From the NCBI RefSeq assembly GCF_050320075.1, contig NZ_CP190018.1: a stretch of 64,000 bases of DNA. One strand, written 5' to 3'. How positions within the stretch are numbered: the first letter of the stretch is position 1; each line of letters begins with the position of its first letter. The position numbers were made by a program, and so were the translations under genes. The notes below the pieces were generated by a model. That model was not told the origin of the DNA. It saw only the letters and a list, made by a program, of their open reading frames with translations, and searched no databases. Positions 6,087-60,829 of the stretch are shown in pieces. The stretch comes from Escherichia coli (GTDB taxonomy: Bacteria > Pseudomonadota > Gammaproteobacteria > Enterobacterales > Enterobacteriaceae).

Positions 6087-6179
6087 GGTGAGGTGGCCGA
6101 GAGGCTGAAGGCGCTCCCCTGCTAAGGGAGTATGCGGTCAAAAGCTGCATCCGGGGTTCGAATCCCCGCCTCACCGCCA
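6087..6179 (+). tRNA. serV: tRNA-Ser (anticodon GCU)
   Basis: 93-nt sequence GGTGAGGTGGCCGAG..CGCCTCACCGCCA with long variable arm, anticodon loop CUGCUAA, 3' CCA. Confidence 0.95.
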
Positions 6180-6182
6180 TTT

Positions 6183-6259
6183 GCATCCGTAGCTCAGCTG
6201 GATAGAGTACTCGGCTACGAACCGAGCGGTCGGAGGTTCGAATCCTCCCGGATGCACCA
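6183..6259 (+). tRNA. argV: tRNA-Arg (anticodon ACG), copy 1
   Basis: 77-nt GCATCCGTAGCTCAGCTGGATAGAGTACTCGGCTACGAACCGAG..GGATGCACCA. Confidence 0.95.
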
Positions 6260-6370
6260 TATTCTACGTACTTTCAGCGATGAAGGTATGGAAGAGGTGG
6301 CGGTAATAACCGCAGGCACCAGGGAGGATAACGTTGCTTTAGCAACGGCCCGAAGGGCGAGCCGCAAGGC

Positions 6371-6393
6371 GAGTAATCCTCCCGGATGCACCA
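6371..6393 (+). pseudogene. tRNA 3'-end fragment (T-arm/acceptor remnant) inside the tRNA-Arg array spacer
   Basis: GAGTAATCCTCCCGGATGCACCA mimics the last ~20 nt of the adjacent tRNA-Arg and is followed by a normal inter-tRNA spacer. Confidence 0.5.
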
Positions 6394-6457
6394 TCTCTTA
6401 CTTGATACGGCTTTAGTAGCGGTATCAAAAAATCTGCAGTAAAGTAAGTTTCCCGAT

Positions 6458-6534
6458 GCATCCGTAGCTCAGCTGGATAGAGTACTCGGCTACGAACCGA
6501 GCGGTCGGAGGTTCGAATCCTCCCGGATGCACCA
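6458..6534 (+). tRNA. argY: tRNA-Arg (ACG), copy 2
   Basis: Identical 77-nt tRNA-Arg sequence. Confidence 0.95.
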
Positions 6535-6596
6535 TCTCTTACTTGATATGGCTTTAGCAGCGGTATCAATATCAGCAGTAAAATAAATTTCCCGAT

Positions 6597-6673
6597 GCAT
6601 CCGTAGCTCAGCTGGATAGAGTACTCGGCTACGAACCGAGCGGTCGGAGGTTCGAATCCTCCCGGATGCACCA
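6597..6673 (+). tRNA. argZ: tRNA-Arg (ACG), copy 3
   Basis: Identical 77-nt tRNA-Arg sequence. Confidence 0.95.
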
Positions 6674-6775
6674 TATTCTCCGTAATCATCAGTGATGATG
6701 GTTAAGATGGATTTTCTTATTTGATATGGCTTTAGTAGCGGTATCAATATCAGCAGTAAAATAAGTTTTCCCGAT

Positions 6776-6852
6776 GCATCCGTAGCTCAGCTGGATAGAG
6801 TACTCGGCTACGAACCGAGCGGTCGGAGGTTCGAATCCTCCCGGATGCACCA
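6776..6852 (+). tRNA. argQ: tRNA-Arg (ACG), copy 4
   Basis: Identical 77-nt tRNA-Arg sequence. Confidence 0.95.
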
Positions 6853-8036: not shown

Positions 8037-9620
<1,584 letters not shown>

Positions 9621-9627
9621 CAGAAAA

Positions 9628-9700
9628 GAAAAAGGCCACTCGTGAGTGGCCAAAATTTCATCTCTGAATTCAGGGATGATGATAACAAATGCGCGTCTTT
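9628..9700 (-). ncRNA. micA: MicA (SraD) Hfq-dependent small RNA
   Basis: Minus strand reads GAAAGACGCGCATTTGTTATCATCATCCCTGAATTCAGAGATGAAATTTTGGCCACTCACGAGTGGCCTTTTT, ending in a terminator hairpin; sits between gshA and luxS. Confidence 0.85.
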
Positions 9701-9769
9701 CATATACTCAGACTCGCCTGGGAAGAAAGAGTTCAGAAAATTTTTAAAAAAATTACCGGAGGTGGCTAA

Positions 9770-10285
9770 ATGCCGTTGTTAGATAGCTTCACAGTCGATC
9801 ATACCCGGATGGAAGCGCCTGCAGTTCGGGTGGCGAAAACAATGAACACCCCGCATGGCGACGCAATCACCGTGTTCGATCTGCGCTTCTGCGTGCCGAA
9901 CAAAGAAGTGATGCCAGAAAGAGGGATCCATACCCTGGAGCACCTGTTTGCTGGTTTTATGCGTAACCATCTTAACGGTAATGGTGTAGAGATTATCGAT
10001 ATCTCGCCAATGGGCTGCCGCACCGGTTTTTATATGAGTCTGATTGGTACGCCAGATGAGCAGCGTGTTGCTGATGCCTGGAAAGCGGCAATGGAAGACG
10101 TGCTGAAAGTGCAGGATCAGAATCAGATCCCGGAACTGAACGTCTACCAGTGTGGCACTTACCAGATGCACTCGTTGCAGGAAGCGCAGGATATTGCGCG
10201 TAGCATTCTGGAACGTGACGTGCGCATCAACAGCAACGAAGAACTGGCGCTGCCGAAAGAGAAGTTGCAGGAACTGCACATCTAG
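9770..10285 (+). CDS. luxS: S-ribosylhomocysteine lyase (AI-2 synthase)
   Basis: 171-aa [26 protein letters not shown].. with HTLEH metal motif. Confidence 0.97.
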
Positions 10286-10310: not shown

Positions 10311-10345
10311 TGAAAAAAGCCAGTTCAAATGAACTGGCTTAGTTG
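10311..10345. terminator. Bidirectional terminator between luxS and emrB
   Basis: Hairpin GCCAGTTCAAATGAACTGGC flanked by an A-run upstream and T-rich sequence downstream. Confidence 0.6.
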
Positions 10346-24051: not shown

Positions 24052-24259
24052 TATTCGTATTTCCGTTTAAAATGAAGATACGGCGCGATGATACGCGTCG
24101 GGTTGTCTCTCTGTTGATACAGAGATACTAGATGTAGTTGAAAAAAGATTCAACCATACAAGATATGGGAATTTTAGATTGATTACGCCACCGATGAATG
24201 GCTCAACGGGGTAGGGGATTTTGTGTTTTTTTGCCGGGCGAATACCCGGCATCAAGAAG

Positions 24260-24691
24260 TTACATCCGCATGGAAACGGCCAGACGGTTAAAACAATTCA
24301 TCAGCCCGATGGCAAACGTTAAGTCGCTGATCTCTGCTGCGCTGAAATGCTCAAGCAAAGGCTGATAAACCTCGTCTTCCGCATGGGTTCTGGCAATTTC
24401 GGTTACCGATTCCGCCCATGCCAGCGCCGCCCGCTCGCGTTCATCAAAATGATGGCTTACGCGCCAACCTGCCAGGGCGTCCAGTTTGTGCTGTGGCACG
24501 CCGGATTTGCGCAATGCTTTGCTGTGCATCTCCAGACAAAATGCGCAGCCGTTGATTTGCGAGACGCGCAAATAAACTAACTCCATCAACGTGGTATCCA
24601 GCGTGCTATTTTCCAGTGCCGTTTTGGCCTGCACTAGTGCGTTATACACTGCCGGGCTAAGTTCGTAGTAAGGCTGACGTAATGTAGTCAT
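24260..24691 (-). CDS. Carboxymuconolactone decarboxylase / AhpD-like family protein
   Basis: 143-aa ORF with GCAFCLEMH (CxxCxxxH AhpD-type motif). Confidence 0.7.
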   Translation of the reverse strand: MTTLRQPYYELSPAVYNALVQAKTALENSTLDTTLMELVYLRVSQINGCAFCLEMHSKALRKSGVPQHKLDALAGWRVSHHFDERERAALAWAESVTEIARTHAEDEVYQPLLEHFSAAEISDLTFAIGLMNCFNRLAVSMRM

Positions 24692-24778
24692 ACAGTTTCT
24701 CCTCTTATTAACGCCCGCAATGTAGCACTATAATGGACTGCTAAAGAGAGCCATAAATTACCTAAAAAAGCAGACCAT

Positions 24779-26113
24779 ATGCCGCGCTATCAGGATATCG
24801 CCCGTCAGTTAAAAACGGCTATTGAGCAAGGGGAACTGAAACCCGGCGCAAGGCTGCCTTCAAGTCGTACCTGGTCGCAGGAGCTGGGGGTGTCTCGATC
24901 CACTGTCGAAAATGCGTATGCTGAGCTGGTGGCGCAAGGATGGCTGATCAGGCGGGGACAGGCTGGCACATTTGTCAGTGAGCGGATATATCCGCAACAA
25001 TCTACTGTACAAGTTGTAGCTTTTGCCGGTGAAAGTCAGCAACCGTTGCCATTTCAAATGGGATTACCCGCACTCGATCTCTTTCCGCGAGAGCTGTGGG
25101 CGCGGGTGATGGGGCGTCGCCTTCGTACCCAGACGCGCTTTGATTTGGCGTTAGGCGATGTCTGCGGTGAGGTGGCGTTGCGCGAGGCAATAGTTGATTA
25201 CTTACGCGTTTCACGTGGGATTGATTGTCAGCCAGAGCAGGTCTTTATCACTCACGGTTATGCGGCCTCAATAGCTTTAATTCTGCACGCGCTGGCGAAA
25301 CCGGGAAACGGGATGTGGATAGAAGATCCCGGCTTTCCACTGATTCGCCCGATTGTCACTCGCCATGATGTGGAAATTTTGCCTGTGCCGGTTGATGACA
25401 ATGGACTGGATATCACAAGCGGAATACAAAATTATCCTGATGCGCGTTTTGCCCTGATAACACCAGCACACCAAAGTCCGCTGGGTGTGGCGCTCTCTTT
25501 AGCGCGCAGGCATCAGATACTGGAATGGGCAGATCGTAGTCAGGCATGGATTATTGAAGATGATTATGACAGTGAGTTTCGCTATCACGGTAAGCCGTTA
25601 CCGGCGTTAAAAAGTCTCGACGCACCGCAGCGGGTAATTTATGCCGGAACATTCAGCAAAGCGCTATTTCCTGCATTGCGCTGTGCGTGGCTGGTGTTGC
25701 CAGTGAAGCAAATTGCACAATTCCGCCACCAGGCGTCACTGGCTCCATGTGCGGTACCTGTTCTATGGCAGAACACACTGGCAGACTTTCTTCGCGAGGG
25801 GCATTTCTGGCGGCATCTGAAGAAAATGCGTCAGCATTATGCCCAACGTCGGCAATGGATTGAGCAAGCGTTGACGCAGCAAGGATTTCAGGTTGTGCCG
25901 CAGAAAGGTGGTATCCAGATGGTGATCAGAATGATAGGCGATGATATTGCCCATGCGCGTAAAGCCAATGCTGCAGGCCTTGCGGTGCAGGCACTTAGCG
26001 ACTGGCGTATCCGTTCAAGTGGGGAAGGTGGATTACTGCTCTCGTTTACTAATATCGTTAACGAAGGTATGGCGCGACAGGTAGCACAACAATTACGTAA
26101 AGCCTTAAGCTAA
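24779..26113 (+). CDS. MocR/GntR-family PLP-dependent transcriptional regulator
   Basis: 444-aa ORF: N-terminal GntR-type HTH (ARLPSSRTWSQELGVSRSTVENAY) plus aminotransferase-like domain with GTFSK lysine motif; divergent from the AhpD-like gene. Confidence 0.75.
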   Translation: MPRYQDIARQLKTAIEQGELKPGARLPSSRTWSQELGVSRSTVENAYAELVAQGWLIRRGQAGTFVSERIYPQQSTVQVVAFAGESQQPLPFQMGLPALDLFPRELWARVMGRRLRTQTRFDLALGDVCGEVALREAIVDYLRVSRGIDCQPEQVFITHGYAASIALILHALAKPGNGMWIEDPGFPLIRPIVTRHDVEILPVPVDDNGLDITSGIQNYPDARFALITPAHQSPLGVALSLARRHQILEWADRSQAWIIEDDYDSEFRYHGKPLPALKSLDAPQRVIYAGTFSKALFPALRCAWLVLPVKQIAQFRHQASLAPCAVPVLWQNTLADFLREGHFWRHLKKMRQHYAQRRQWIEQALTQQGFQVVPQKGGIQMVIRMIGDDIAHARKANAAGLAVQALSDWRIRSSGEGGLLLSFTNIVNEGMARQVAQQLRKALS

Positions 26114-49090: not shown

Positions 49091-51424
49091 TCAGGCTGTT
49101 GCAGGGTCGTCACATTTTGGCAGCCAGTCGCCGTAGCTTTCCTCTTTCAGCGTCAGGTTGGTCTGTATCCCCTGTTTGGTATGGCGCTTCTCGTAATTCA
49201 GTCCGTATTCCTTCAGCATCACCGGCAGCCCCAGCCCGAACATTTTCAGACTGAGTACGTTCCGGTAGCCGTTTGCCTCCATGTAGGCCAGATAGGCGTG
49301 ATAGAGGTATTTACGGTAATTGCGCGGGATGATGCTGGCGTTCCCCATATACATGCCGCTGGTCTGCGGCAGGGTTTCCAGATAGCCGATAAAATCAAAC
49401 GTCGGGTCGGCATCCCGTTTGATGTTCAGCGCCTCGTCTGAGTTCTGCTGGGACTGAAGCAGTGACCGGGCGAGCATCGGGTCGCTGAACTTCTGCATCA
49501 GGTGACGCACGATGACCGCCAGCTCGCGGGTGATTTTGTCCTTAAGCTGCGGGTCGCGCTCCTGCGGGGCTATCTGTTCCGGGAAGTGAATAATCACCCG
49601 CCGGCGTGACACGCCGCCGCTGCGGTCGGTGAAGCGCATCGGGTTATTGTTCACGGCCAGAATTACCGCCGGGATATGCGTGGAGTATGCATCCCGGTAT
49701 TTCGGGTCAACGGACACCGCATCGCCGCCGGTGATGGCCTTGAGTCCGGCACCGTCGCCGCTCCATTTTTCCTGGTCCGGCAGGCGTATCAGTGAGAAGC
49801 CAGTTAACGCGGCACGTTCACGCGGGGATTCCAGCGTCTCGATGGTGGCCGACGTGGCGTTATCCTCACCGGCCAGCAGGGTGGCTATTTCGGCCATGAT
49901 ACTTTTGCCGCTGCCGCCGGGACCGGTCACCTCCAGAAAGAGCTGCCAGTCGTAGCGGTTTGCCAGCACCATAAACAGTGCGGCCAGAATCACGTCGCGT
50001 TTTTCCGCACGACCACCGGCGGCACGGTCAAGCCAGCGCCAGAACGCGGGGGCGTGGGTTTCCAGCGTTTCCCCTTCCACCGGCGGGGTGAAATCCACAT
50101 CGCACAGGGTGCGCATCCAGTGTGACGGACTGTGCGGGTGGAACGTGCCGCTCTGCGTGTCGAGCACGCCGTTACGAAAGCCAATCAGGCGGCGGGAGGG
50201 GGCTTCCTGCTGCGGAATAATCAGCTTCAGGGTGTCCACCACGGAGGCCACCTTCCCGGAGGAGAACGGCGCGCGCAGACGCTGAAACAGCCCGGCCACA
50301 TCCCGGGCAAAGTCCTGTGGTGGCAGCACCTTCCAGACACCATTTTCATAACGGGACAGAAGCTGGCCGTTGGCATCAACCGCGAGCGCCTCGCCGTAAT
50401 GCTCATAGATACGCATGGCCTTTTCGCTGGTACTCATGGCGGAAAACTCCGCTTCGCTCATGGTGTCGAACGGGCTTTCAGCCGGTGGCCGGATGGCATC
50501 ATAAATGGCCTTACGGGTGGCTTCCCCGCCGTACTGCGTGAAGGCATCATTCCAGTCACCGAAGACCGGCGGCAGGGCAACAACACCTTCACACGCATCT
50601 GCGGCTGCGGCGGCTTTTTTCTGGCCGTCACCGCTGAGGTCACGGTCAGCAGCAAGGACAATCTGACAGGCCGGATGCTTCTGCCGGGCAAGGCTGGCCA
50701 GAGAAAGGAGATTCACGGAAGAAAGCGCCACCATCACCGTTTCACCGGTCAGGTGATGCACGGTAAGTGCGGTCGCGTATCCCTCCGCTATCCACAGACG
50801 TTTTCCGGCCTGATTCTGTCCTTCAAGGGTGTGACAGGTGCCCCTGACCTGTCCGCCTTTCAGGGTGCGCTTACGGCCGTCAGCACTGATTAACTGAAGG
50901 TTAACCAGTTCGCCGCTGTCGTCATACAGTGGCACCACAAGGTCACCGGCGCGCCAGCTCACGCCACCGGCTCTGTGTGTGCCGGTCAGCATCCGGCATT
51001 CCCGGCCGGGAAAGCCCTTGCGGGTCAGGTAGGCGTTACCGGTTCCGGGACGGGTTTTCGCCATCAGGGTTTGTGCCAGTGCGGCGGCGTTCTTCCGGGC
51101 AGCGTCTGTTTCAGCACCGGCGGCGGTCGTCACTGCCGGGTCAGCCGGGGGCAGGCTGCCGGTCACGGCAGCCACCTTTGCGGCCGCGTCGGACGGGGAA
51201 ACACCAAACACCTTTTCAACCAGTTTCAGGCCGTCACCGGCACCACACTGATTGCAGTACCAGGTGCCGCGCCCCTCCCTGTCATCAAAACGGAAGCGGT
51301 CACTCCCGCCACAGACCGGACAGGGCTGATGACGGTTCTTCAGCACCTGAATCCCCAGCGCCGGGAGAATACGCGGCCAGTGGCCGAGCGCATGGCTGAC
51401 GGTGGCGGTTACGTTCATTTTCAT
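49091..51424 (-). CDS. P4 alpha-like primase/helicase (replication protein)
   Basis: 777-aa ORF; N-terminal zinc motif CPVCGG..YCNQCG, toprim-like region, central Walker A GPGGSGKS; strong SD AAGGAG upstream. Confidence 0.9.
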   Translation of the reverse strand: MKMNVTATVSHALGHWPRILPALGIQVLKNRHQPCPVCGGSDRFRFDDREGRGTWYCNQCGAGDGLKLVEKVFGVSPSDAAAKVAAVTGSLPPADPAVTTAAGAETDAARKNAAALAQTLMAKTRPGTGNAYLTRKGFPGRECRMLTGTHRAGGVSWRAGDLVVPLYDDSGELVNLQLISADGRKRTLKGGQVRGTCHTLEGQNQAGKRLWIAEGYATALTVHHLTGETVMVALSSVNLLSLASLARQKHPACQIVLAADRDLSGDGQKKAAAAADACEGVVALPPVFGDWNDAFTQYGGEATRKAIYDAIRPPAESPFDTMSEAEFSAMSTSEKAMRIYEHYGEALAVDANGQLLSRYENGVWKVLPPQDFARDVAGLFQRLRAPFSSGKVASVVDTLKLIIPQQEAPSRRLIGFRNGVLDTQSGTFHPHSPSHWMRTLCDVDFTPPVEGETLETHAPAFWRWLDRAAGGRAEKRDVILAALFMVLANRYDWQLFLEVTGPGGSGKSIMAEIATLLAGEDNATSATIETLESPRERAALTGFSLIRLPDQEKWSGDGAGLKAITGGDAVSVDPKYRDAYSTHIPAVILAVNNNPMRFTDRSGGVSRRRVIIHFPEQIAPQERDPQLKDKITRELAVIVRHLMQKFSDPMLARSLLQSQQNSDEALNIKRDADPTFDFIGYLETLPQTSGMYMGNASIIPRNYRKYLYHAYLAYMEANGYRNVLSLKMFGLGLPVMLKEYGLNYEKRHTKQGIQTNLTLKEESYGDWLPKCDDPATA

Positions 51425-51438
51425 GGTGTTGTTCTCCT

Positions 51439-51759
51439 TCAGTGCAGTACCGGCGCTTTTATGTGACGGGCACAGAGTTCATCCATCACAACCAGCCCGA
51501 GAAAGGACAGCGACGGCGCGGCCTTCAGGGGGCCGGATTCCATTAAATCTTCCAGCAGGGCACAGGCTATCTGACGCCCTTTTTCCTCACCGTGCTGGCG
51601 CAGATAAAAGCCTTCCAGCTCAGCGGCGATGGCCGCCTCCAGTGATTCAAGGGTGAGATGCGGGTAGCGGTGCTGACGTTCGCACACGGTCAGCCAGGCA
51701 CAGGCGACAGCGCGACGGTAAAGGGCAGCGCGTAAGACGGGCGGTAAGGGTGTTTTCAT
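51439..51759 (-). CDS. 106-aa protein upstream of alpha (P4 orf106/Cnr-like by position and size)
   Basis: ORF with GGAGG SD 7 nt upstream; ends 14 bp before the alpha start; functional name is from recalled P4 gene order only. Confidence 0.6.
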
Positions 51760-51894
51760 TTGCTTTCCTCCCTGTGACAGATGACTGCATTCCGTGCCGG
51801 TTGCATTAACTGATAAGGCATATCTGCGTCTCCTGAAGACGTGCGTATCCCTGCGCGAATACGCACATTTAATTTTTCGGGTGTCGTTTTTTAA

Positions 51895-52350
51895 TTACAG
51901 ATAATTGCGGTAACTGTTATCCGGGGTGATTTCCGGGTCAGACTCCGTGCGGGGAATTTCCCGCCATTCCCGCGCCACCGGTGCCGCCCGGCTGACCGGA
52001 ACAGGGGCCTGCGGGTAAATATCCAGATATTTCTCCCGCCATTTCTGTAATTCCGGGTCTCCGGCCATTTCTTTCAGTACCGCATGCCGGTTTACGGGGC
52101 TGCGTTTAAACAGGTCAGGACGGTCACAGGTAAATTCCCGCAGAAAACGCCCCAGCGGGATGTCTGTGGTGCGTCCGTCAGCGAGGATACGCACAAGGAT
52201 ACTGAATTTACGGCGGTACGGGTTCCAGACAATGTCCGGGCAGCGGTACGGCATTTCCCACGGAATACCGTCTTCCAGAATGCCGACCACGGCCACATCG
52301 GGAAAACCGGCAGAACGGTAAATCTCACCGGGCTGGGGAAAATCAAACAT
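51895..52350 (-). CDS. 151-aa hypothetical protein (P4 orf151-like)
   Basis: Start ATG overlaps the stop of the upstream gene (ATGTTTGA); same operon. Confidence 0.6.
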   Translation of the reverse strand: MFDFPQPGEIYRSAGFPDVAVVGILEDGIPWEMPYRCPDIVWNPYRRKFSILVRILADGRTTDIPLGRFLREFTCDRPDLFKRSPVNRHAVLKEMAGDPELQKWREKYLDIYPQAPVPVSRAAPVAREWREIPRTESDPEITPDNSYRNYL

Positions 52351-52630
52351 GCGTCCTGTCTCCCCGGTCTTTCTGCTGGGCGAGAAAATCGCGGCACAGG
52401 CCTTTGGCTTTCAGCTCATTCAGCACAAAATCAATATCTTCATTCAGGTAGCTGAAAATATGCGGAATGTAGAGCTGATGCAGGCCGGAGAGTTCACGGT
52501 GAATCAAATCACCCCCAACAAACTGGGATACGGCGCTGGCGCGGTTGAGCTTATGGTAAGCCTCAATGCTGAGGTGTTCACGGGCGTCATGACGCGCTGA
52601 GACGGTCTGAGGGGCTTTTTTATTACGCAC
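52343..52630 (-). CDS. 95-aa hypothetical protein, GTG start (possibly P4 epsilon-like)
   Basis: Track ORF 52343..52915 has an implausible N-terminus overlapping the upstream gene; GTG at 52630 is preceded by GGAGG at 6-nt spacing, giving [28 protein letters not shown].. Confidence 0.5.
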
Positions 52631-53222
52631 GGGACACCTCCACCACCGGCAGACGGGCAGCAAGGGAGAGCACATAGTCACGGACAAGGGAACGGCGGGC
52701 ACTGCGTTCATCACCGGCGACGGTGCGAAGCATACAGATACGGGGATGACGGTCTGCGCGACGGACAGCCGCAAACACAAAGACAAATTCAGGGTGTGAG
52801 GGGGTAAGGGTTGTAGCCATGATGGCAGCCTCCTGTGAATAGCAAATAACGCTATCGCCGGAGTTCTCACGCTCGATGGCGATAGCCCAGACGGGGGTGA
52901 GAATACCGGCTTCACAGGATACCGGCCAGCCCGGAGGCTGCCCCGCCTGAGCTACCATTGACTCTGCGGCATAATGAGCGGACGCGGGCAGGATGCACGG
53001 AATGCCATCTGCACGACTGACCACACACCACACCATAATCTGGCGCTCTGTGGCATTGATTGCGACACAAAAAAAGACGCGTGGCGCGTCATATGTCGCC
53101 TGTGAATTGCTCGGGTTCTCACGCCCGGCTGCCGATTTTGCGGCAGCGGAAAAACTATATCCGCAAATGCCGGAAAAAGGCAAGCCAGAAAAAGGGACTT
53201 TTTGCAGAGCGGGCATCATCAT
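52623..53222 (-). CDS. 199-aa hypothetical protein (P4 orf199-like)
   Basis: ATGATGATG at 53222-53214 overlaps the vis stop (ATGA coupling); track ORF 52623..53267 extends into vis in another frame. Confidence 0.5.
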
Positions 53223-53485
53223 GCGTCGTACCCCCGTTTGCGTCCGGCAATGCGCCCGGCCATCCATGCGGTGACTTCAGAGTGCAGCCAGGCCACATTT
53301 TTACCGCCAAGACTCACCTGCGGCGGAAATTCCCCTTTACGGATGAGTTCATAGATGGTCGAGCGTGACAGGCCGCACAGGTGCATCACTTCCGGCAGAC
53401 GTAAAAAACGCTCCTGCGTGATGTCCGGCAGCGGCATCAGTGGCGTCACAGGGGCGGGAGACGGGGAAGAAAAAACAGCTTGCAT
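53219..53485 (-). CDS. AlpA/Vis-family phage regulator (excisionase-like HTH), 88 aa
   Basis: ..[44 protein letters not shown].. AlpA-type HTH; first gene of the leftward operon. Confidence 0.8.
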
Positions 53486-53587
53486 CGGGCTACCTCGTTA
53501 ATGTCCATACAGCACCGGATAAGTCCGTCCGGCTTCGGGTAGCGCTTTATTTTGTGAATATTTTCAGCAGACGCAACAGGGGGGATT

Positions 53588-53605
53588 TGTTCCGGCAGTC
53601 TTACA
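53588..53605 (-). promoter_or_regulatory. TGT-N12-ACA dyad (Ogr/Delta activator-type box) upstream of the vis-alpha operon
   Basis: TGTTCCGGCAGTCTTACA about 100 bp upstream of the vis start; dyad geometry as in P2/P4 late promoters. Confidence 0.45.
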
Positions 53606-53764
53606 ATGGCTGTGTATTTTTTGTTCATCTCCACTTAAAGTCATTTAAAGCCACTTAAAGCAATTCGTAATTTTTATAGTGAAATACAAATCGTTTTTTC
53701 TTATTCATTCCCGGCGAATTAATAAAAACAAACAGTAATAAACAGCACAAAAAGCCCATCAACG

Positions 53765-53869
53765 GGTGAACAGTGGTGAACAGACGGTGAACAGTCATTA
53801 CTGCGATTGTTCACCCTTTAACTTACTGTATTACTTATCTTTTTTATTAAGGTGAACAGAGGTGAACAG
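53765..53869. repeat. Iteron cluster (GGTGAACAG x5 direct, 1 inverted), ori-like
   Basis: GGTGAACAG at 53765, 53775, 53786, 53851, 53861; inverted TGTTCACC at 53808-53815; same 8-mer as the cluster at 48948-49040. Confidence 0.8.
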
Positions 53870-53948
53870 TAAAATATAAAAAAAACAAACAGTAAGCCGG
53901 TTTTTCCTGCGACCTTTTCCTGGCTTGCCGGTCTGAGGATGAGTCTCC

Positions 53949-53966
53949 TGTGTCAGGGCTGGCACA
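53949..53966 (+). promoter_or_regulatory. TGT-N12-ACA dyad (Delta/Ogr box) of the sid promoter
   Basis: TGTGTCAGGGCTGGCACA centred ~80 bp upstream of the sid ATG. Confidence 0.45.
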
Positions 53967-54038
53967 TCTGCAATGCGTCGTGTTGTTGTCCGGTGTACGT
54001 CACAATTTTCTTAACCTGAAGTGACGAGGAGCCGGAAA

Positions 54039-54773
54039 ATGTCTGACAACACCATCCCTGAATATCTGCAACCCGCGCTGGCACAACTGGAAAAGGCCAG
54101 AGCCGCCCATCTTGAGAACGCCCGCCTGATGGATGAGACCGTCACGGCCATTGAACGGGCAGAACAGGAAAAAAATGCGCTGGCGCAGGCCGACGGAAAC
54201 GACGCTGACGACTGGCGCACGGCCTTTCGTGCAGCCGGTGGTGTCCTGAGCGACGAGCTGAAACAGCGCCACATTGAGCGCGTGGCACGCCGGGAGCTGG
54301 TACAGGAATATGACAATCTGGCCGTGGTGCTGAATTTTGAACGTGAACGCCTGAAAGGGGCGTGTGACAGCACGGCCACCGCCTACCGGAAGGCACATCA
54401 TCACCTGCTGAGTCTGTATGCAGAGCATGAGCTGGAACACGCCCTGAATGAAACCTGTGAGGCGCTTGTCCGGGCAATGCATCTGAGCATCCAGGTACAG
54501 GAAAATCCGCTCGCCAACACCACCGGCCATCAGGGCTACGTCGCGCCGGAAAAGGCTGTCATGCAGCAGGTGAAATCATCGCTGGAGCAGAAAATTAAAC
54601 AGATGCAAATCAGCCTCACCGGCGAGCCGGTTCTCCGGCTGACCGGACTGTCAGCGGCAACACTCCCGCACATGGATTATGAGGTGGCAGGCACACCGGC
54701 ACAGCGCAAGGTGTGGCAGGACAAAATAGACCAGCAGGGAGCAGAGCTTAAGGCCAGAGGACTGCTGTCATGA
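54039..54773 (+). CDS. sid: P4 Sid-like capsid size-determination (external scaffold) protein, 244 aa
   Basis: Start MSDNTIPEYLQPALAQLEK.. inside track ORF 54021..54773; coiled-coil-rich; stop overlaps the delta start (ATGA). Confidence 0.8.
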   Translation: MSDNTIPEYLQPALAQLEKARAAHLENARLMDETVTAIERAEQEKNALAQADGNDADDWRTAFRAAGGVLSDELKQRHIERVARRELVQEYDNLAVVLNFERERLKGACDSTATAYRKAHHHLLSLYAEHELEHALNETCEALVRAMHLSIQVQENPLANTTGHQGYVAPEKAVMQQVKSSLEQKIKQMQISLTGEPVLRLTGLSAATLPHMDYEVAGTPAQRKVWQDKIDQQGAELKARGLLS

Positions 54774-55270
54774 TTTACTGCCCGTCGTGTGGACATGTTG
54801 CTCACACCCGTCGCGCACATTTCATGGACGATGGCACCAAGATAATGATTGCACAGTGCCGGAATATTTATTGCTCTGCGACATTTGAAGCGAGTGAAAG
54901 CTTTTTCTCTGACAGTAAAGATTCAGGAATGGAATACATTTCAGGCAAACAGAGATACCGCGATTCACTGACGTCGGCCTCCGGCAGTATGAAACGCCCG
55001 AAAAGAATGCTTGTTACCGGATATTGTTGTCGGAGATGTAAAGGCCTTGCGCTGTCAAGAACATCGCGGCGTCTGTCTCAGGAAGTCACCGAGCGTTTTT
55101 ATGTGTGCACGGATCCGGGCTGTGGTCTGGTGTTTAAAACGCTTCAGACCATCACCCGCTTCATTGTCCGCCCGGTCACGCCGGACGAACTGGCAGAAAA
55201 CCTGCATGAAAAACAGGAACTGCCGCCAGTACGGTTAAAAACACAATCATATTCGCTGCGTCTGGAATGA
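54770..55270 (+). CDS. P4 Delta-like late-gene activator (tandem Ogr-type zinc fingers), 166 aa
   Basis: Two Cys4 motifs (CPSCGH..CRNIYC and CCRRCKG..CTDPGCG). Confidence 0.85.
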   Translation: MIYCPSCGHVAHTRRAHFMDDGTKIMIAQCRNIYCSATFEASESFFSDSKDSGMEYISGKQRYRDSLTSASGSMKRPKRMLVTGYCCRRCKGLALSRTSRRLSQEVTERFYVCTDPGCGLVFKTLQTITRFIVRPVTPDELAENLHEKQELPPVRLKTQSYSLRLE

Positions 55271-55343
55271 GGGCTGCCGGTTAACACCGGCCGTCGCCAC
55301 ACACCGTATTTTTATTCTTCAGCATGATGAGAAAGAGATAACG

Positions 55344-55916
55344 ATGGAAAGCACAGCCTTACAGCAGGCCTTTGACACCTGTCAGAATAACAAAGCAGCA
55401 TGGCTGCAACGCAAAAATGAGCTGACTGCGGCCGAACAGGAATATCTGCGGCTTCTGTCAGGAGAAGGCAGAAACGTCAGTCACCTGGACGAATTACGCA
55501 ATATTATCGAAGTCAGAAAATGGCAGGTGAATCAGGCCGCCGGTCGTTATATTCGTTCGCATGAAGCCGTTCAGCACATCAGCATCCGCGACCGGCTGAA
55601 TGATTTTATGCAGCAGCACGGCACAGTACTGGCGGCCGCACTGGCACCGGAGCTGATGGGCTACAGTGAGCTGACGGCCATTGCCCGAAACTGTGCCATA
55701 CAGCGTGCCACAGATGCCCTGCGTGAAGCCCTTCTGTCCTGGCTTGCGAAGGGTGAAAAAATTAATTATTCCGTACAGGATAGCGACATTTTAACGACCA
55801 TCGGATTCAGGCCTGACGCGGCTTCGGTGGATGACAGCCGTGAAAAATTCACCCCTGCGCAGAACATGATTTTTTCGCGCAAAAGTGCGCAACTGGCATC
55901 ACATCAGTCTGTGTAA
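55344..55916 (+). CDS. psu: P4 Psu-like polarity suppression / capsid decoration protein, 190 aa
   Basis: 190-aa ORF following sid and delta; lengths 244/166/190 match my recollection of P4. Confidence 0.8.
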   Translation: MESTALQQAFDTCQNNKAAWLQRKNELTAAEQEYLRLLSGEGRNVSHLDELRNIIEVRKWQVNQAAGRYIRSHEAVQHISIRDRLNDFMQQHGTVLAAALAPELMGYSELTAIARNCAIQRATDALREALLSWLAKGEKINYSVQDSDILTTIGFRPDAASVDDSREKFTPAQNMIFSRKSAQLASHQSV

Positions 55917-55950
55917 AACTCCCCGAAAATCCGCCCGTTTTTACTGAAAA

Positions 55951-55983
55951 AAGCCATGCATCGATAAGGTGCATGGCTTTGCA
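55951..55983 (+). terminator. Intrinsic terminator after psu
   Basis: Hairpin GCCATGCATCGATAAGGTGCATGGC followed by TTT. Confidence 0.6.
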
Positions 55984-56080
55984 TGCGTTTTCCTGCCTCA
56001 TTTTCTGCAAACCGTGCCATTCCCGGCGCGGTCTGAGCGTGTCAGTACAACTGCATTAAAACCGCCCCGCAAAGCGGGCG

Positions 56081-56099
56081 GGCGAGGCGGGGAAAGCAC
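56081..56099. other. cos site (P2/P4-type 19-nt cohesive end sequence)
   Basis: GGCGAGGCGGGGAAAGCAC inside a GC-rich palindromic context (AAACCGCCCCGCAAAGCGGGCGGGCGAGGCGGGG..); matches the P2/P4 cohesive end as I recall it. Confidence 0.7.
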
Positions 56100-56303
56100 C
56101 GCGCGCTAAACCTGATGAATAAGGAATATTTTAAAAACATTTGTGGATATGAATATTTGGGTTGTAAATGAGTGTTTTTATCTGTTTTTATGTGCTGTGA
56201 AGCAATGTTTGAGTCGATATTTTTATAAAGCTCAATAAAAATTACATTATCATTGATAAGAATGGTTGTCGGATTAACACGTTTTTAAGCTATTTATATA
56301 TAA

Positions 56304-56332
56304 TTAAACCTCGGCAAGGTTGCTGAGGTTTA
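56304..56332 (-). terminator. Putative terminator downstream of the cargo gene
   Basis: Inverted repeat TAAACCTCGGCA..TGCTGAGGTTTA just past the stop at 56350, followed by AT-rich sequence on the minus strand. Confidence 0.45.
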
Positions 56333-56349
56333 ATCGATTGGTTAATTAT

Positions 56350-59076
56350 TTAGTTGATTAGGTGTGACTCAGTTGCAGAGTGACCTTTTTTTGTCCTAAC
56401 AAACTTGATAGCAAGTGTTTTTCCTCTAATGTAATTAGACCAGTTATATTTTTCTTCACCAAGGCAACTGTCCCTATGAATTAATATTTCTTTTCCATCA
56501 GAATCTCTGGCAAAAACAAATCCTTTTCCTAATGTAAGATCTGAATATATTTCTGCTATAGAATATCCATTATTTTTCCATGTGATTTGTTCGAATTCGG
56601 CAATTGTTTTAGATGAGCTAAAAGCACTCCATTTGGGGGAGGTGAATGGGTTGTTTGGTATTTTTGTTGCTCTCATTGTTGAAATGATATTAACTACTTC
56701 TTTACTTGATATCTTAAAATCTTTAGAGAACTTTGTAATGTCGGCAAGATTGCTTTCAGCAAAATCAATTACTTTTATAATGAATTGTTGAGATAGTTTA
56801 TCAATGTTGTTTTTGATCGTGTCACAAAAAAGATTTAAAGATTTAATAGCTTCGTCAGAAAGTCGATCGCTGATGTTTTCTTTTTCAAATATAAATTCCA
56901 ATATGTCGATAACTTCAGATATGTTTTTTTCTACAGACTCAGGGTTAATGTCGAAGTTATTTTCACAAGAACGCTTTAATGCGGCGACTCTAAAGTAAGC
57001 TTGCTCTTGAGGTGAATGTGAATCTTTCCATTTTTCAGTGTATTCAAGAATGTCTGGGTATTCTTTACCATAAAGATGAACACCTAAATACTCTCGCATT
57101 ATTATAGAAGACAGTACTTCGCCTGAATGCTCAACTCTGTCGAATCCAGAATCAATCAATTCCTGAGATACTTTTTGAGCCTCTATAAAATCACCAATAT
57201 CTTTATAGATATACATCAGAGTTAAGTTGTTTAGTGGATTTTCAGACTCTATGCCTATTGCTGACTTTATACAAGAAATAGCACCTAAATTATCACCCTG
57301 CTTATGTAGTATTCTGGCATATGTTCGCATAAATAGAGGATTTTTTTGATATATTTGAGCGAGTGTTTTAAAATCCTCATAAATAACATTTAATTTATCT
57401 TTGTTAACGCTTTTGTAGCCTAAAATTTTATTTGCTCTGTTAACAGCTATTTGCAAGGAGTCAGGGCTATTATTAGGGATGAATCGATAATCAAACCGAT
57501 CTATTTCTTTATCTTGTTGGAATTTTTGTAAGTGCAATATTTCAGTTCGTTGTTTTCTTGCTTTTTCAGCAATAATGTTTCTGACGGTGTTATTTCTTGG
57601 TGATGTGATTAATAGTTCTTTGATTGATTCACTTAAAGAAAACTCTTCTTCTCCCGTATTAGATGTTTTCCGGGATACTAAAGATGTGTTCAATATTTCT
57701 TTAATCGCTTTTGCTATTGAGTCGGGATCTGAATCTAAGAAATGAGTTAAAAATGATCTTGATGATGCTCCGGTGACAAACAAGCATTCAAGAATAGATA
57801 TTGCATCGTTACTTAAAACATCTAATAGATTATTAAATGAAAATGCAGCGATATCTTTTTTGGATTTTTCTATTGAGTCAGGTAAAGCCATTCCATTATA
57901 AATGGAATCTATTGTAAGCCTTATTGCTAAGGGGTTAAAATGAGTCACTTCAGTAATTCTCGTGAGTTCTTCTGGGGTTAAGTTTATTATCCCTCGTTTA
58001 TCTGAATATGATTTGGCTAGATGGAAAGCCACACCAGATTGCAATTCCTTAAGTGAAATTGGGTAAGCTCCGTCAACCATTATTCGACTAGTGACTACCA
58101 CTTTAAAATTCGAAGGAAGAGTATACTGGAAACGAATGAACTCATCAGGACCATCTCTTAATAAAGTTTCGAGATTATCGATACATAGGAGAGTGCTTTC
58201 TATATCTTGGTCGTTTATAATTTCTGAATATAGATCATCATAGTTTTCTATCTCTTCATCAGGATTAAAAAACTCCACTATTTCTTTTTTTATTTCAGAA
58301 ATGGTGTCAATGTTTTTTAACTCAGAAATACCATCAGCAGTGAGATGATGTTTCTTTAATGTTAAATAGCAAATGTTTTTGAATTTCTCATTGGCTTTTG
58401 GTGAGATGCTCAATTCTTTTAAGAAATCTAAAATTAAAGCGGTTTTTCCTACGCCTCCAGGAGCTACAACCGCAATGAATGGAGTTCGATCGTTATTTAT
58501 TGCTGATAATAACTCTTTCTTTTCACCTTTACGGCCTATAAGGCTGGTAATGTCGTGATCAAATTTATCAGGCAGGTTGTTATTAATTTCCCAGCTAATA
58601 GTAGAAAACCATTCTTCTGGAGGTGCTTTTAATTGACCAGTAGATGCGGAATAATAAGCATCCTTCACACTTTTTAAACCAAGTACTTCTATATATGGAT
58701 GTGAGGCTATAGCTGCAGCGCAATGCCAGTAATGCTCATGGAATGGTCGGGTTGGATGACTAATTTGATTTCTTATAAAAAATAAATCAACAGCTGTACA
58801 GAACTCTTTCAGTTCTGACAGTTTATCATAGTCAGATGTACCCTTAGCTAATTGCAGGGCATAATTGAAAATTTCACCGATATAACTTGCTTGGATAAGA
58901 GTTTGCGTATTGAAAACGGGACCTCTCCCACGCTCCAGTTCTAGTTTAGAACGAGGTTCGAAATGTTCGCTTAACCTACTTTTACCTCCTGCATCCTCAC
59001 TAACAACATACGCCGCCAATGCTTTTTCTAAGGCATAAACTATCATACTAGTTTTCGTATCAAGATATTCAGACAT
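56350..59076 (-). CDS. STAND (NB-ARC-type) NTPase with N-terminal effector-like domain, helical repeat region and C-terminal beta domain; candidate antiphage defence protein
   Basis: 908-aa AT-rich ORF with SD AAGGA; LIGRKGEKKEL..IAVVAPGGVGKTALIL (Walker A), LLCIDNLE (Walker B), KVVVTSR (RNBS-B-like), HFNPLAIRL (GLPL-like); N-terminal IRNQISH (Rx4H); C-terminal GKGFVFARDSDGKEILIH. Confidence 0.8.
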   Translation of the reverse strand: MSEYLDTKTSMIVYALEKALAAYVVSEDAGGKSRLSEHFEPRSKLELERGRGPVFNTQTLIQASYIGEIFNYALQLAKGTSDYDKLSELKEFCTAVDLFFIRNQISHPTRPFHEHYWHCAAAIASHPYIEVLGLKSVKDAYYSASTGQLKAPPEEWFSTISWEINNNLPDKFDHDITSLIGRKGEKKELLSAINNDRTPFIAVVAPGGVGKTALILDFLKELSISPKANEKFKNICYLTLKKHHLTADGISELKNIDTISEIKKEIVEFFNPDEEIENYDDLYSEIINDQDIESTLLCIDNLETLLRDGPDEFIRFQYTLPSNFKVVVTSRIMVDGAYPISLKELQSGVAFHLAKSYSDKRGIINLTPEELTRITEVTHFNPLAIRLTIDSIYNGMALPDSIEKSKKDIAAFSFNNLLDVLSNDAISILECLFVTGASSRSFLTHFLDSDPDSIAKAIKEILNTSLVSRKTSNTGEEEFSLSESIKELLITSPRNNTVRNIIAEKARKQRTEILHLQKFQQDKEIDRFDYRFIPNNSPDSLQIAVNRANKILGYKSVNKDKLNVIYEDFKTLAQIYQKNPLFMRTYARILHKQGDNLGAISCIKSAIGIESENPLNNLTLMYIYKDIGDFIEAQKVSQELIDSGFDRVEHSGEVLSSIIMREYLGVHLYGKEYPDILEYTEKWKDSHSPQEQAYFRVAALKRSCENNFDINPESVEKNISEVIDILEFIFEKENISDRLSDEAIKSLNLFCDTIKNNIDKLSQQFIIKVIDFAESNLADITKFSKDFKISSKEVVNIISTMRATKIPNNPFTSPKWSAFSSSKTIAEFEQITWKNNGYSIAEIYSDLTLGKGFVFARDSDGKEILIHRDSCLGEEKYNWSNYIRGKTLAIKFVRTKKGHSATESHLIN

Positions 59077-59094
59077 ATATGATCCTTGTTCAAA

Positions 59095-60282
59095 TTAAAG
59101 AGTGGTTTGCAATCCCCACCAATTCATTAACTCTATACGTTGTTCTAAATAGGTACTTCTATTGTAAGCTTTTCGAACCTCATTCCTCTCGGAATGCGCC
59201 AATGCTGCTTCAATAACATCAGGATTAAATTCTGCTTCGTTCATTGCCGTACTGGCAATTGATCTTAGTCCATGGGCCACTAACTTACCGCCATAACCTA
59301 TTCTCTTCAAGGCAGCGTTTGCCGTCTGACTGTTCATCGGCTGTTTTGGATCGTTTCTGCTCGGGAAAATATGTTCACGGTGACCACTGATAGGCTTCAT
59401 TACTTCCAAAATACCTAAAGCCTGAGGTGACAAAGGGACAATGTGTTCACGTTTAGCCTTCATTCGTTCGGCGGGAATCGTCCAGAGTTTGGCCTCGAGA
59501 TCGATCTCGACCCACCGAGCACCAGAAGCCTCAGAAGGGCGCACTAGGGTCAGGAGCTGCCACTCGATAAGACAGCGAGTCGGAACAGACAGATTCGACA
59601 TTACCAGAGAACGCATCAGCTTAGGTAATTCTTCGGGTCGTAGCGTGGGCATATTCTGCTTTTTGGGTTTCTCAAATGCCATTCCAACACCTGATGCTGG
59701 ATTTGCATCAATTAGACCAGTGTTTACGGCATAAATCATTATCTCGTTAATGCGCTGTACCAGACGACGTACCGTCTCTAGCGCGCCACGTGCTTTGATT
59801 GGTTCGAGGGTTTCAACAAGTGTTCGGGCTTTGATTTGCTGAACAGGGAGCTCACCGATGGCAGGTAATACATCTTTTTCCAGGGAACGCCAAATGTCTT
59901 TCGCGTAATCAGGGGTAACGCTTTTGCTTTTTATCTGGAACCAGTTGGTCGCAACAGTCGAAAAAATACTGTCTAGAGCTATCTGTTGTTGTTCTTCGAT
60001 AAATTCAGCTTGAACTTGTGGGTCTATACCATTAGCCAACAAAGCAAGGTAATCCGCTCTTAACCGTCGAGCATCAGCAAGTGAAAGGGCGGGGAAAGCA
60101 CCAAGCCCCATCATTGTCCGCTGTTTTGTTGCTGGACGTTGATAACGGAAACGCCACAACTTCTTACCGTTCGTTTTAACGAGCAGAAAAAGGCCATCGC
60201 CATCATGTAACGTTAGATCCTTTTCTAACGCTTTAGCGCGCAGAACTTCGGTGTTGGTCAGGGGGCGTGTTGTTCTTGCCAC
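59095..60282 (-). CDS. P4-family tyrosine integrase
   Basis: 395-aa ORF, GTG start with AAGGAG SD; N-terminal arm-binding-like LTNTEVLRAKALEKDLTLHDGDGLFLLVKTNGKKLWRFRY; C-terminal HGLRS..R..Y catalytic region; adjacent to the ssrA 3' end. Confidence 0.9.
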   Translation of the reverse strand: MARTTRPLTNTEVLRAKALEKDLTLHDGDGLFLLVKTNGKKLWRFRYQRPATKQRTMMGLGAFPALSLADARRLRADYLALLANGIDPQVQAEFIEEQQQIALDSIFSTVATNWFQIKSKSVTPDYAKDIWRSLEKDVLPAIGELPVQQIKARTLVETLEPIKARGALETVRRLVQRINEIMIYAVNTGLIDANPASGVGMAFEKPKKQNMPTLRPEELPKLMRSLVMSNLSVPTRCLIEWQLLTLVRPSEASGARWVEIDLEAKLWTIPAERMKAKREHIVPLSPQALGILEVMKPISGHREHIFPSRNDPKQPMNSQTANAALKRIGYGGKLVAHGLRSIASTAMNEAEFNPDVIEAALAHSERNEVRKAYNRSTYLEQRIELMNWWGLQTTL

Positions 60283-60304
60283 TGTGGCCGCTCCTTCATG
60301 AATT

Positions 60305-60352
60305 GGTATACGTGTTTAGGTATACATCCTACCGTATACCTAAACGTATACC
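60305..60352. repeat. Four GGTATAC(G)/CGTATACC motifs in the int promoter region (putative integrase arm-type sites)
   Basis: GGTATACG 60305-60312, GGTATAC 60319-60325, CGTATACC 60333-60340 and 60345-60352; same motif as at 48840-48859. Confidence 0.5.
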
Positions 60353-60466
60353 AATAATCACTGGATTTAGCTGGATATCCTCGGACAATGGTAGACACAA
60401 AAAAGCCCGCAGAGCTTGTGCCATGCGGGCTTTCAGGATTTCTCCGGACGTATCCGGAAGAGCAAG

Positions 60467-60829
60467 TGGTGGAGCTGGCGGGAGTTGAACCCGCGTCCGA
60501 AATTCCTACGTCCTCGGTACTACATGCTTAGTCAGTCTTTACATTCGCTTGCCAGCTGCGGACGGACACGCCACTAACAAACTAGCCTGATTAAGTTTTA
60601 ACGCTTCAACCCCAGGCAGGGCTTCCACGCGATCTCTTTTGGGTTTGACCTCTCTTGATCCCCGTCCTAAGAGCGGAGGCTAGGGAGAGAGGGCTCTAAG
60701 CAGGTTATTAAGCTGCTAAAGCGTAGTTTTCGTCGTTTGCGACTATTTTTTGCGGCTTTTTACGAGGCCAACCGCCCCTCGGCATGCACCTTGGGTTTCG
60801 CAAATCCCGTCGAATCCAGAATCAGCCCC
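60467..60829 (-). ncRNA. ssrA: tmRNA (SsrA), 363 nt
   Basis: Minus strand reads GGGGCTGATTCTGGATTCGACGGGATTTGCGAAACCC..; tag ORF GCAAACGACGAAAACTACGCTTTAGCAGCTTAA (ANDENYALAA*); 3' end ..GCCAGCTCCACCA. Confidence 0.97.

Follow-up and report, generated by a model that had tools for sequence, protein, structure and literature searches.

The micA small RNA gene between gshA and luxS of an Escherichia coli chromosome and its one-way terminator hairpin

The spacer between gshA and luxS in the stretch of Escherichia coli DNA analysed here (64,000 nucleotides, referred to as the window) is, judged by its sequence, the canonical micA locus of E. coli, unchanged from that of K-12; it is the known micA gene and no variant of it, and as such it is already known. 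A canonical micA locus with a one-way terminator, together with antisense action of MicA on long luxS RNAs, very probably accounts for the region as a whole. We conclude that the GC-rich hairpin between the two convergent genes is a canonical terminator for MicA only, and that for RNA of the gshA sense it is a leaky stop or a processing site at most; the claim of an earlier note on this DNA, that the MicA terminator also stops gshA, is overstated. The features of the locus are as follows.

8064..9620, plus strand: gshA coding sequence (glutamate-cysteine ligase), TTG start, TGA stop at 9618-9620; from the list of open reading frames, collinear with K-12 gshA (b2688)
9400..9438, plus strand: predicted luxS P1 promoter and start site, sigma-S type, inside gshA; transferred from K-12 (Udekwu 2010, PMC2956633)
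9624..9633, minus strand: MicA U tail UUUUUCUUUU, terminator tract and Hfq-binding 3' end; from the sequence and the tail across species
9626..9701, minus strand: MicA sRNA; from Rfam, K-12 identity and annotation, and Term-seq
9634..9651, either strand: palindromic GC-rich hairpin with a 7-bp stem and a 4-nt loop, the MicA terminator stem; from the terminator scan and folding
9658..9679, minus strand: MicA internal stem-loop, nt 23-44; from RNAfold and the Rfam consensus
9677..9695, minus strand: MicA 5' single-stranded seed, nt 7-25; from RNAduplex with K-12 ompA, and unpaired in the conserved fold
9687..9769, plus strand: proximal luxS 5' UTR, with the Shine-Dalgarno sequence GGAGG at 9758-9762; from Udekwu 2010 and the sequence
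9708..9735, minus strand: micA promoter, sigma-E type; from sequence and conservation
9770..10285, plus strand: luxS coding sequence (S-ribosylhomocysteine lyase); from the list of open reading frames, corresponding to K-12 luxS (b2687)

The open reading frames and the K-12 annotation agree that MicA is convergent with gshA and divergent from luxS, as the earlier note had stated, and its remark that the arrangement is a known one holds as well (K-12 annotation, synteny in the Enterobacterales). The span that it considered, 9621-9770, is the entire gshA-luxS intergenic region plus the first base of luxS. Two of its distances need correction. The terminator had been placed 8 bp past the gshA stop, but its stem starts 13 bp after the stop (9621..9633 lying between); 8 bp is the gap from the stop to the annotated 3' end of micA (9629), and the gap to the 3' end mapped by Term-seq (9626) is 5 bp. 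The start of MicA had been put 70 bp from the luxS start codon, but 68 bp lie between the +1 position (9701) and the ATG, and the distance from +1 to the A of the ATG is 69 nt. The annotation of K-12 MG1655 has micA 8 bp from gshA and 68 bp from luxS. Open reading frames of 46-78 aa across the spacer overlap known genes or the sRNA on either strand, and were treated as mechanical.

The location of MicA on the minus strand is borne out by two comparisons. Rfam family RF00078 (MicA) matches the window from 9701 to 9630 (minus strand) along the whole model (positions 1-75 of 75); the match scores 83.9 bits (E = 1.4e-11), where the gathering score is 41. Alignment with the annotated micA locus of K-12 MG1655, the check that had been proposed for this region, gives 100% identity over window positions 9561-9800, which are 240 bp comprising the 3' end of gshA, micA and the 5' end of luxS. 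The K-12 gene (b4442, formerly sraD or psrA10) has the same promoter, RNA, terminator, flanking gene ends, neighbours, strand and spacings as that of the window, and the locus itself shows no difference, although other parts of the window do set the host strain apart from K-12. The +1 nucleotide is the G at 9701, and the 3' end falls at 9630 by the Rfam model, at 9629 by the K-12 annotation and at 9626 by Term-seq. Nothing contradicts the identification as MicA. All features of the MicA family that are open to testing are present, namely the match to the model, the location between gshA and luxS, the promoter, the terminator with its U tail, and the ompA seed; the evidence obtained here thus consists of identity, position, structure, promoter and terminator motifs with their conservation, and complementarity between the seed and ompA.

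MicA folds with -20.5 kcal/mol (RNAfold, z = -3.0) into an unpaired 5' region, an internal stem-loop and the terminator. The pairs of the two helices are kept in 76-83 of 83 distinct sequences, almost wholly through invariant bases; a compensatory change is found only in the innermost pair of the terminator stem, which is A-U in 71 of these sequences, U-A in five and G-C in three. Because the helices are nearly invariant in sequence, covariation adds little beyond the Rfam score. The role of the U-tail 3' end in binding Hfq is established; the review consulted on MicA cites Otaka et al. 2011 for it. The seed was tested against the 5' UTR of K-12 ompA, the window strain's own ompA lying outside the window: the duplex of MicA nt 7-25 with ompA positions -22 to -5 has an energy of -23.1 kcal/mol, which none of 1000 shuffles reached, covers the ribosome-binding site of ompA, and is the published interaction. 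This seed-only calculation was used because the prediction for full-length MicA with ompA is dominated by giant internal loops, and the full-length duplex was rejected.

The promoter of micA comprises a -35 element TGAACTC (9735..9729), a 16-nt spacer and a -10 element TCTGA (9712..9708), followed by 6 nt to +1. Spacing of this kind (a GAACTT-like -35, about 16 nt, and a TCTGA- or TCAAA-like -10) fits a start at the G of GAAAGACGCGC, and the columns GAAC and GTCT are ungapped and at least 90% conserved in 110 distinct upstream sequences. Dependence of micA on sigma-E has been published by three groups, according to a review, in which K-12 MicA is an sRNA that is induced by sigma-E and represses ompA, phoPQ and further envelope mRNAs in an Hfq-dependent manner. 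As the RNA is identical to that of K-12, we infer that MicA of the window strain is probably a sigma-E-induced, Hfq-dependent repressor as well. RNA polymerase with sigma-E would start at G 9701 on the minus strand in envelope stress and stationary phase; transcription would end at the hairpin and U tract (9651..9624), giving an Hfq-binding MicA of approximately 72-76 nt, the unpaired 5' end of which would repress ompA and further envelope mRNAs by pairing at their ribosome-binding regions. For the dependence on sigma-E and on Hfq, for processing by RNase III and for the ends of the transcripts, we rely on published K-12 experiments with the identical sequence. The sigma-E-dependent Hfq sRNAs RybB and MicL follow the same regulon logic as a repressing arm of the envelope stress response and, like MicA, act on outer-membrane protein mRNAs (review), but their sequences and loci are unrelated to those of MicA, and of the three only MicA has been described as acting also in cis on a neighbouring mRNA.

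The hairpin GGCCACTCACGAGTGGCC reads from 9651 to 9634 on the minus strand and is followed there by TTTTTCTTTT. It folds equally well on both strands, and its stem is kept in all 83 distinct sequences; the terminator scan calls it on the minus strand only. On the MicA strand, the first four nucleotides after the stem are four T in 103 of 109 species, and seven of the first eight are T in 104 of the 109. On the gshA strand, the first four nucleotides hold no more than one T (0-1) in 108 of the 109, and the tail in the window is AAAAUUUCAU, which contains no U tract. The hairpin would thus act as a strong one-way intrinsic terminator for MicA.

Bidirectional intrinsic terminators are reportedly found between convergent genes. 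In these, as at micA and gshA, two convergent transcription units have one palindromic GC-rich hairpin between them, but the hairpin at micA and gshA is unlike them in having a U tract on one side only and documented read-through on the other: among the features of such terminators, the GC-rich hairpin is present, whereas a U tract on both strands and a block to read-through in both directions are lacking. It is rather unlikely that the hairpin is a true bidirectional terminator, efficiently ending both MicA and the gshA mRNA and leaving gshA and luxS as separate transcription units. This reading draws on the folding of the hairpin on both strands, on its being the sole terminator-like structure from the gshA stop to the end of luxS (the scan found no other such site on the plus strand over that interval), and on the tight spacing from stop to hairpin, which is conserved in nearly all species (8-27 bp with a single exception, 13 bp being both the commonest value and that of the window). 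It is weakened by the missing plus-strand U tract, in the window and in 108 of the 109 species, and by the silence of the scan on that strand. Term-seq of K-12 places a gshA-sense 3' end at 2814861 (window 9642) and classes it as the primary end of gshA, which argues for termination; however, this end lies inside the loop of the hairpin rather than past its stem, and was found only in LB at OD 0.4 (one of three conditions), with 34.6k reads versus 143k for MicA, the 3' end of which is at 2814877(+), in the U tract, in all three conditions. The register of the sequence column of the Term-seq table was confirmed on SgrS and MicA.

SMRT-Cappable-seq lists full-length yqaB-yqaA-gshA-luxS reads (16 reads, from a start site at 2817528 to a termination site at 2814158) and gshA-luxS operon variants from three further start sites, and the major luxS transcript, P1, which starts inside gshA at -332, runs across the hairpin (PMC2956633), all of which conflicts with efficient termination of gshA; the same SMRT-Cappable-seq data also include a gshA-only operon variant, as a bidirectional terminator would give. 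The gshA-only variant and the gshA-sense Term-seq end indicate that some stopping or processing at the hairpin does occur. What survives of the proposal that gshA shares the hairpin is therefore that this is the only plus-strand candidate up to the end of luxS and that one gshA-sense Term-seq end falls there; against it stand the absence of a plus-strand U tract, the position of that end in the loop in one condition of three, and the published read-through into luxS.

A comparable hairpin lies at the other end of luxS, which has one common hairpin with the convergent gene emrB (10317-10340), with a U tract on the emrB side only; it is the second one-sided hairpin in this neighbourhood. Term-seq of K-12 finds a strong luxS-sense 3' end 4 nt past its stem (window 10344, approximately 209k-270k reads), and the formation of a strong luxS end without a U tract on that side is a further point for a bidirectional terminator at gshA. 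Two other K-12 observations concern the surroundings of the MicA terminator. A table of Rho termination places a bicyclomycin-sensitive region at 2815245(+), corresponding to approximately 9258 on the minus strand of the window, antisense to gshA; this Rho-dependent region lies some 370 nt past the terminator of MicA, on the strand that encodes the sRNA, and suggests that part of the transcription in the MicA sense continues beyond that terminator into gshA, antisense to it. Term-seq also gives a very strong gshA-sense 3' end at window 9589 (305,886 reads, seen only in LB at OD 2.0), which is 31 nt short of where the gshA reading frame ends and 37 nt beyond the 3' end of MicA. The RNA upstream of the 9589 end, folded in search of a terminator or protective hairpin, was no better than shuffles (z of about 0).

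The relation of micA to luxS is one of overlap. The entire micA promoter falls within the luxS 5' UTR, on the opposite strand, and MicA overlaps the luxS mRNA, the published 5' ends of which (9438 and 9687/8) lie upstream of micA or within it. The P1 start is a G at -332 from the ATG (window 9438), and primer KU41A ends at that G (PMC2956633); the P1 block is about 98% identical to K-12, and its position was placed by similarity. The proximal 5' end, at about -83/-82 (window 9687/8), overlaps MicA nt 1-14/15, as taken from the published overlap of 14-15 nt and a luxS fusion from -84 to +6 (Udekwu 2010, PMC2956633). Synonymous-site conservation over the last 240 codons of gshA in 106 species, examined for the mark of an embedded luxS P1 promoter or of an RNA internal to the reading frame, shows no dip at 9400-9438 or near the 3' end. 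A sigma-70-like site at 9679..9708 on the plus strand was rejected, being a single hit no better than shuffles that misfits the published luxS 5' end.

Because micA is antisense between two co-directional genes, any luxS mRNA with a 5' end upstream of it contains the full complement of MicA; such mRNAs would be read-through transcripts from the gshA and yqaB promoters and sigma-S P1 transcripts from inside gshA, and MicA with RNase III would trim these long RNAs to a short luxS mRNA. When MicA is overexpressed in K-12, the long luxS RNAs fall and a short form builds up, which is absent from an RNase III mutant, and the level of LuxS protein is unchanged (PMC2956633). The short RNA, R3, is both TAP-enhanced and RNase III-dependent, which its author was unable to reconcile (PMC2956633). 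The strength of the cis-antisense role of MicA is uncertain.

GadY, acting on gadX-gadW, is one example of a cis-antisense sRNA through which RNase III processes an overlapping mRNA. MicA resembles antisense sRNAs of the GadY type in its perfect complementarity to the overlapping transcript and in the RNase III-dependent cleavage that parts a longer mRNA into pieces, and is unlike them in that processing in cis is a secondary activity, under which LuxS protein was unchanged.

Coupling of the sRNA with luxS through promoter overlap, as the earlier note proposed, is correct as to geometry, the micA promoter lying within the luxS 5' UTR and the transcription units overlapping; interference between the promoters is a suggestion of the literature, and the documented link is antisense pairing with RNase III processing, with no change in LuxS protein reported. 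Since the experiments show a post-transcriptional link and a promoter effect is only suggested, such coupling is a reasonable hypothesis rather than an established mechanism. It is unlikely that the main connection between MicA and luxS is transcriptional interference, in which polymerase at the sigma-E promoter of micA would block or collide with luxS transcription and vice versa. The geometry would allow it, as transcription from any luxS start site has to cross the -35 and -10 elements of micA (9708..9735) to reach the ATG, and the proximal luxS mRNA begins 14-15 nt inside micA; a review raises steric hindrance or collision at the promoter level as a possibility, and describes deletions in the luxS 5' region of Salmonella that alter biofilm phenotypes via MicA. 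However, MicA supplied in trans from a plasmid suffices to alter the luxS transcript pattern (PMC2956633), which points to RNA pairing, and the unchanged LuxS protein is a second argument against interference. If interference did operate, envelope stress would lower luxS transcription directly.

A more speculative and, in our judgement, improbable extension is that the micA gene and its one-sided terminator form a sigma-E-controlled gate on the gshA-luxS co-transcript. In unstressed cells, polymerases coming from the promoters of gshA and yqaB and from P1 would pass the hairpin into luxS; when MicA is made, its pairing with RNase III cleavage, possibly aided by polymerase collision, would sever luxS from gshA, and the gshA-sense 3' ends at 9642 and 9589 would be processing products. 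Envelope stress would then rewire the connection that the operon makes between synthesis of glutathione and the activated-methyl cycle.

The reading of the region as a canonical micA locus is in keeping with its distribution. Of 5426 complete E. coli genomes, 5423 contain the 149-bp spacer, in each case on the chromosome, and in 4699 of them it has no more than one mismatch; the other three have no match to the spacer at all. When one genome per species was scanned for exact matches to the 5' core of MicA, at least 120 loci in the Enterobacterales were found; among those listed, 113 have the end of gshA immediately ahead of the MicA terminator and 117 have the start of luxS closely upstream of micA, and in all ten exceptions among the matches listed the available sequence stops before the neighbouring gene, so that the order gshA (forward), micA (reverse), luxS (forward) holds in all 120 listed loci wherever the sequence reaches the neighbours. 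Across species, MicA +1 and luxS are 67-179 bp apart, most often 70-72 bp. MicA of Salmonella and other Enterobacterales shares with the window this synteny, the invariant 5' seed, a GGCCAC terminator stem and the conserved sigma-E promoter; the loop, the linker lengths and the distance from micA to luxS vary, and the innermost pair of the terminator stem is A-U in most species but U-A in E. coli and Citrobacter.

Two natural E. coli strains have a disrupted micA: in R13 (L124:3491-3616), a 39-bp deletion corresponding to window 9680-9718 has removed MicA nt 1-22 and the -10 box, and in p10B (L003:4220-6144), ISEcp1 is inserted at the equivalent of window 9713, between the -35 and -10 elements. 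The spacer (9621-9769) is without an annotated feature in the 25 RefSeq E. coli records sampled, from which it appears that standard annotation leaves micA unmarked outside curated records of the K-12 style. It is almost certainly wrong to regard the match as a relic or as a resemblance by chance, with no functional sRNA in the window strain: such disrupted strains and the featureless spacer would suit it, but the promoter, RNA and terminator are base for base those of the experimentally characterised K-12 gene, the Rfam E-value is far from chance, and the region is near-invariant in 5421 E. coli genomes.

As a discovery the locus has little weight: the micA gene and its sigma-E promoter, the targets of the sRNA and the antisense relation with luxS were all described between 2001 and 2010. 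The comparison does correct a common shorthand, in that termination at the hairpin is not symmetrical and transcripts of the gshA sense go on into luxS. It also has a practical side: luxS deletions or insertions that touch the 5' region also hit the micA promoter, damage to which is the known cause of misattributed "quorum-sensing" phenotypes in Salmonella.

Beyond the locus, the window aligns collinearly and in reverse orientation with K-12 positions 2824730-2752422, at 94-99% identity. At 48787-60396 it has a P4-like satellite of approximately 11.6 kb where K-12 carries the 22-kb CP4-57 prophage beside ssrA. The features of this region are as follows.

49091-51424, minus strand: P4-like satellite alpha-type primase-helicase
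52623-53267, minus strand: P4-like satellite Ash
54770-55270, plus strand: P4-like satellite Ogr/Delta
55344-55916, plus strand: P4-like satellite Psu
56350-59076, minus strand: 908-aa open reading frame between the P4-like integrase and psu
59095-60282, minus strand: P4-like satellite integrase
60467-60829, minus strand: ssrA tmRNA

Rfam matches to C4, isrK and c4-a1b1 at 52875-53160 mark the immunity-RNA region of the satellite. The 908-aa open reading frame gives only weak Pfam matches to P-loop and STAND NTPases (E of about 1e-4), and no convincing PADLOC family. The position between integrase and psu in P4-like satellites is, we take it, a known hotspot for anti-phage systems, and the 908-aa reading frame may be an uncatalogued defence candidate.

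Between ygaM and nrdH, approximately 1.95 kb (24166-26112) that is missing from K-12 contains two divergent genes.

24260-24691, minus strand: open reading frame of the carboxymuconolactone-decarboxylase family
24779-26113, plus strand: GntR/aminotransferase-fold (MocR-type) regulator, divergent from the decarboxylase-family gene

In the serV-argVYZQ tRNA cluster (6087-6849), the last spacer (6702-6835) is approximately 96 bp shorter than that of K-12, measuring 179 nt from tRNA start to tRNA start here versus 275 nt in K-12.
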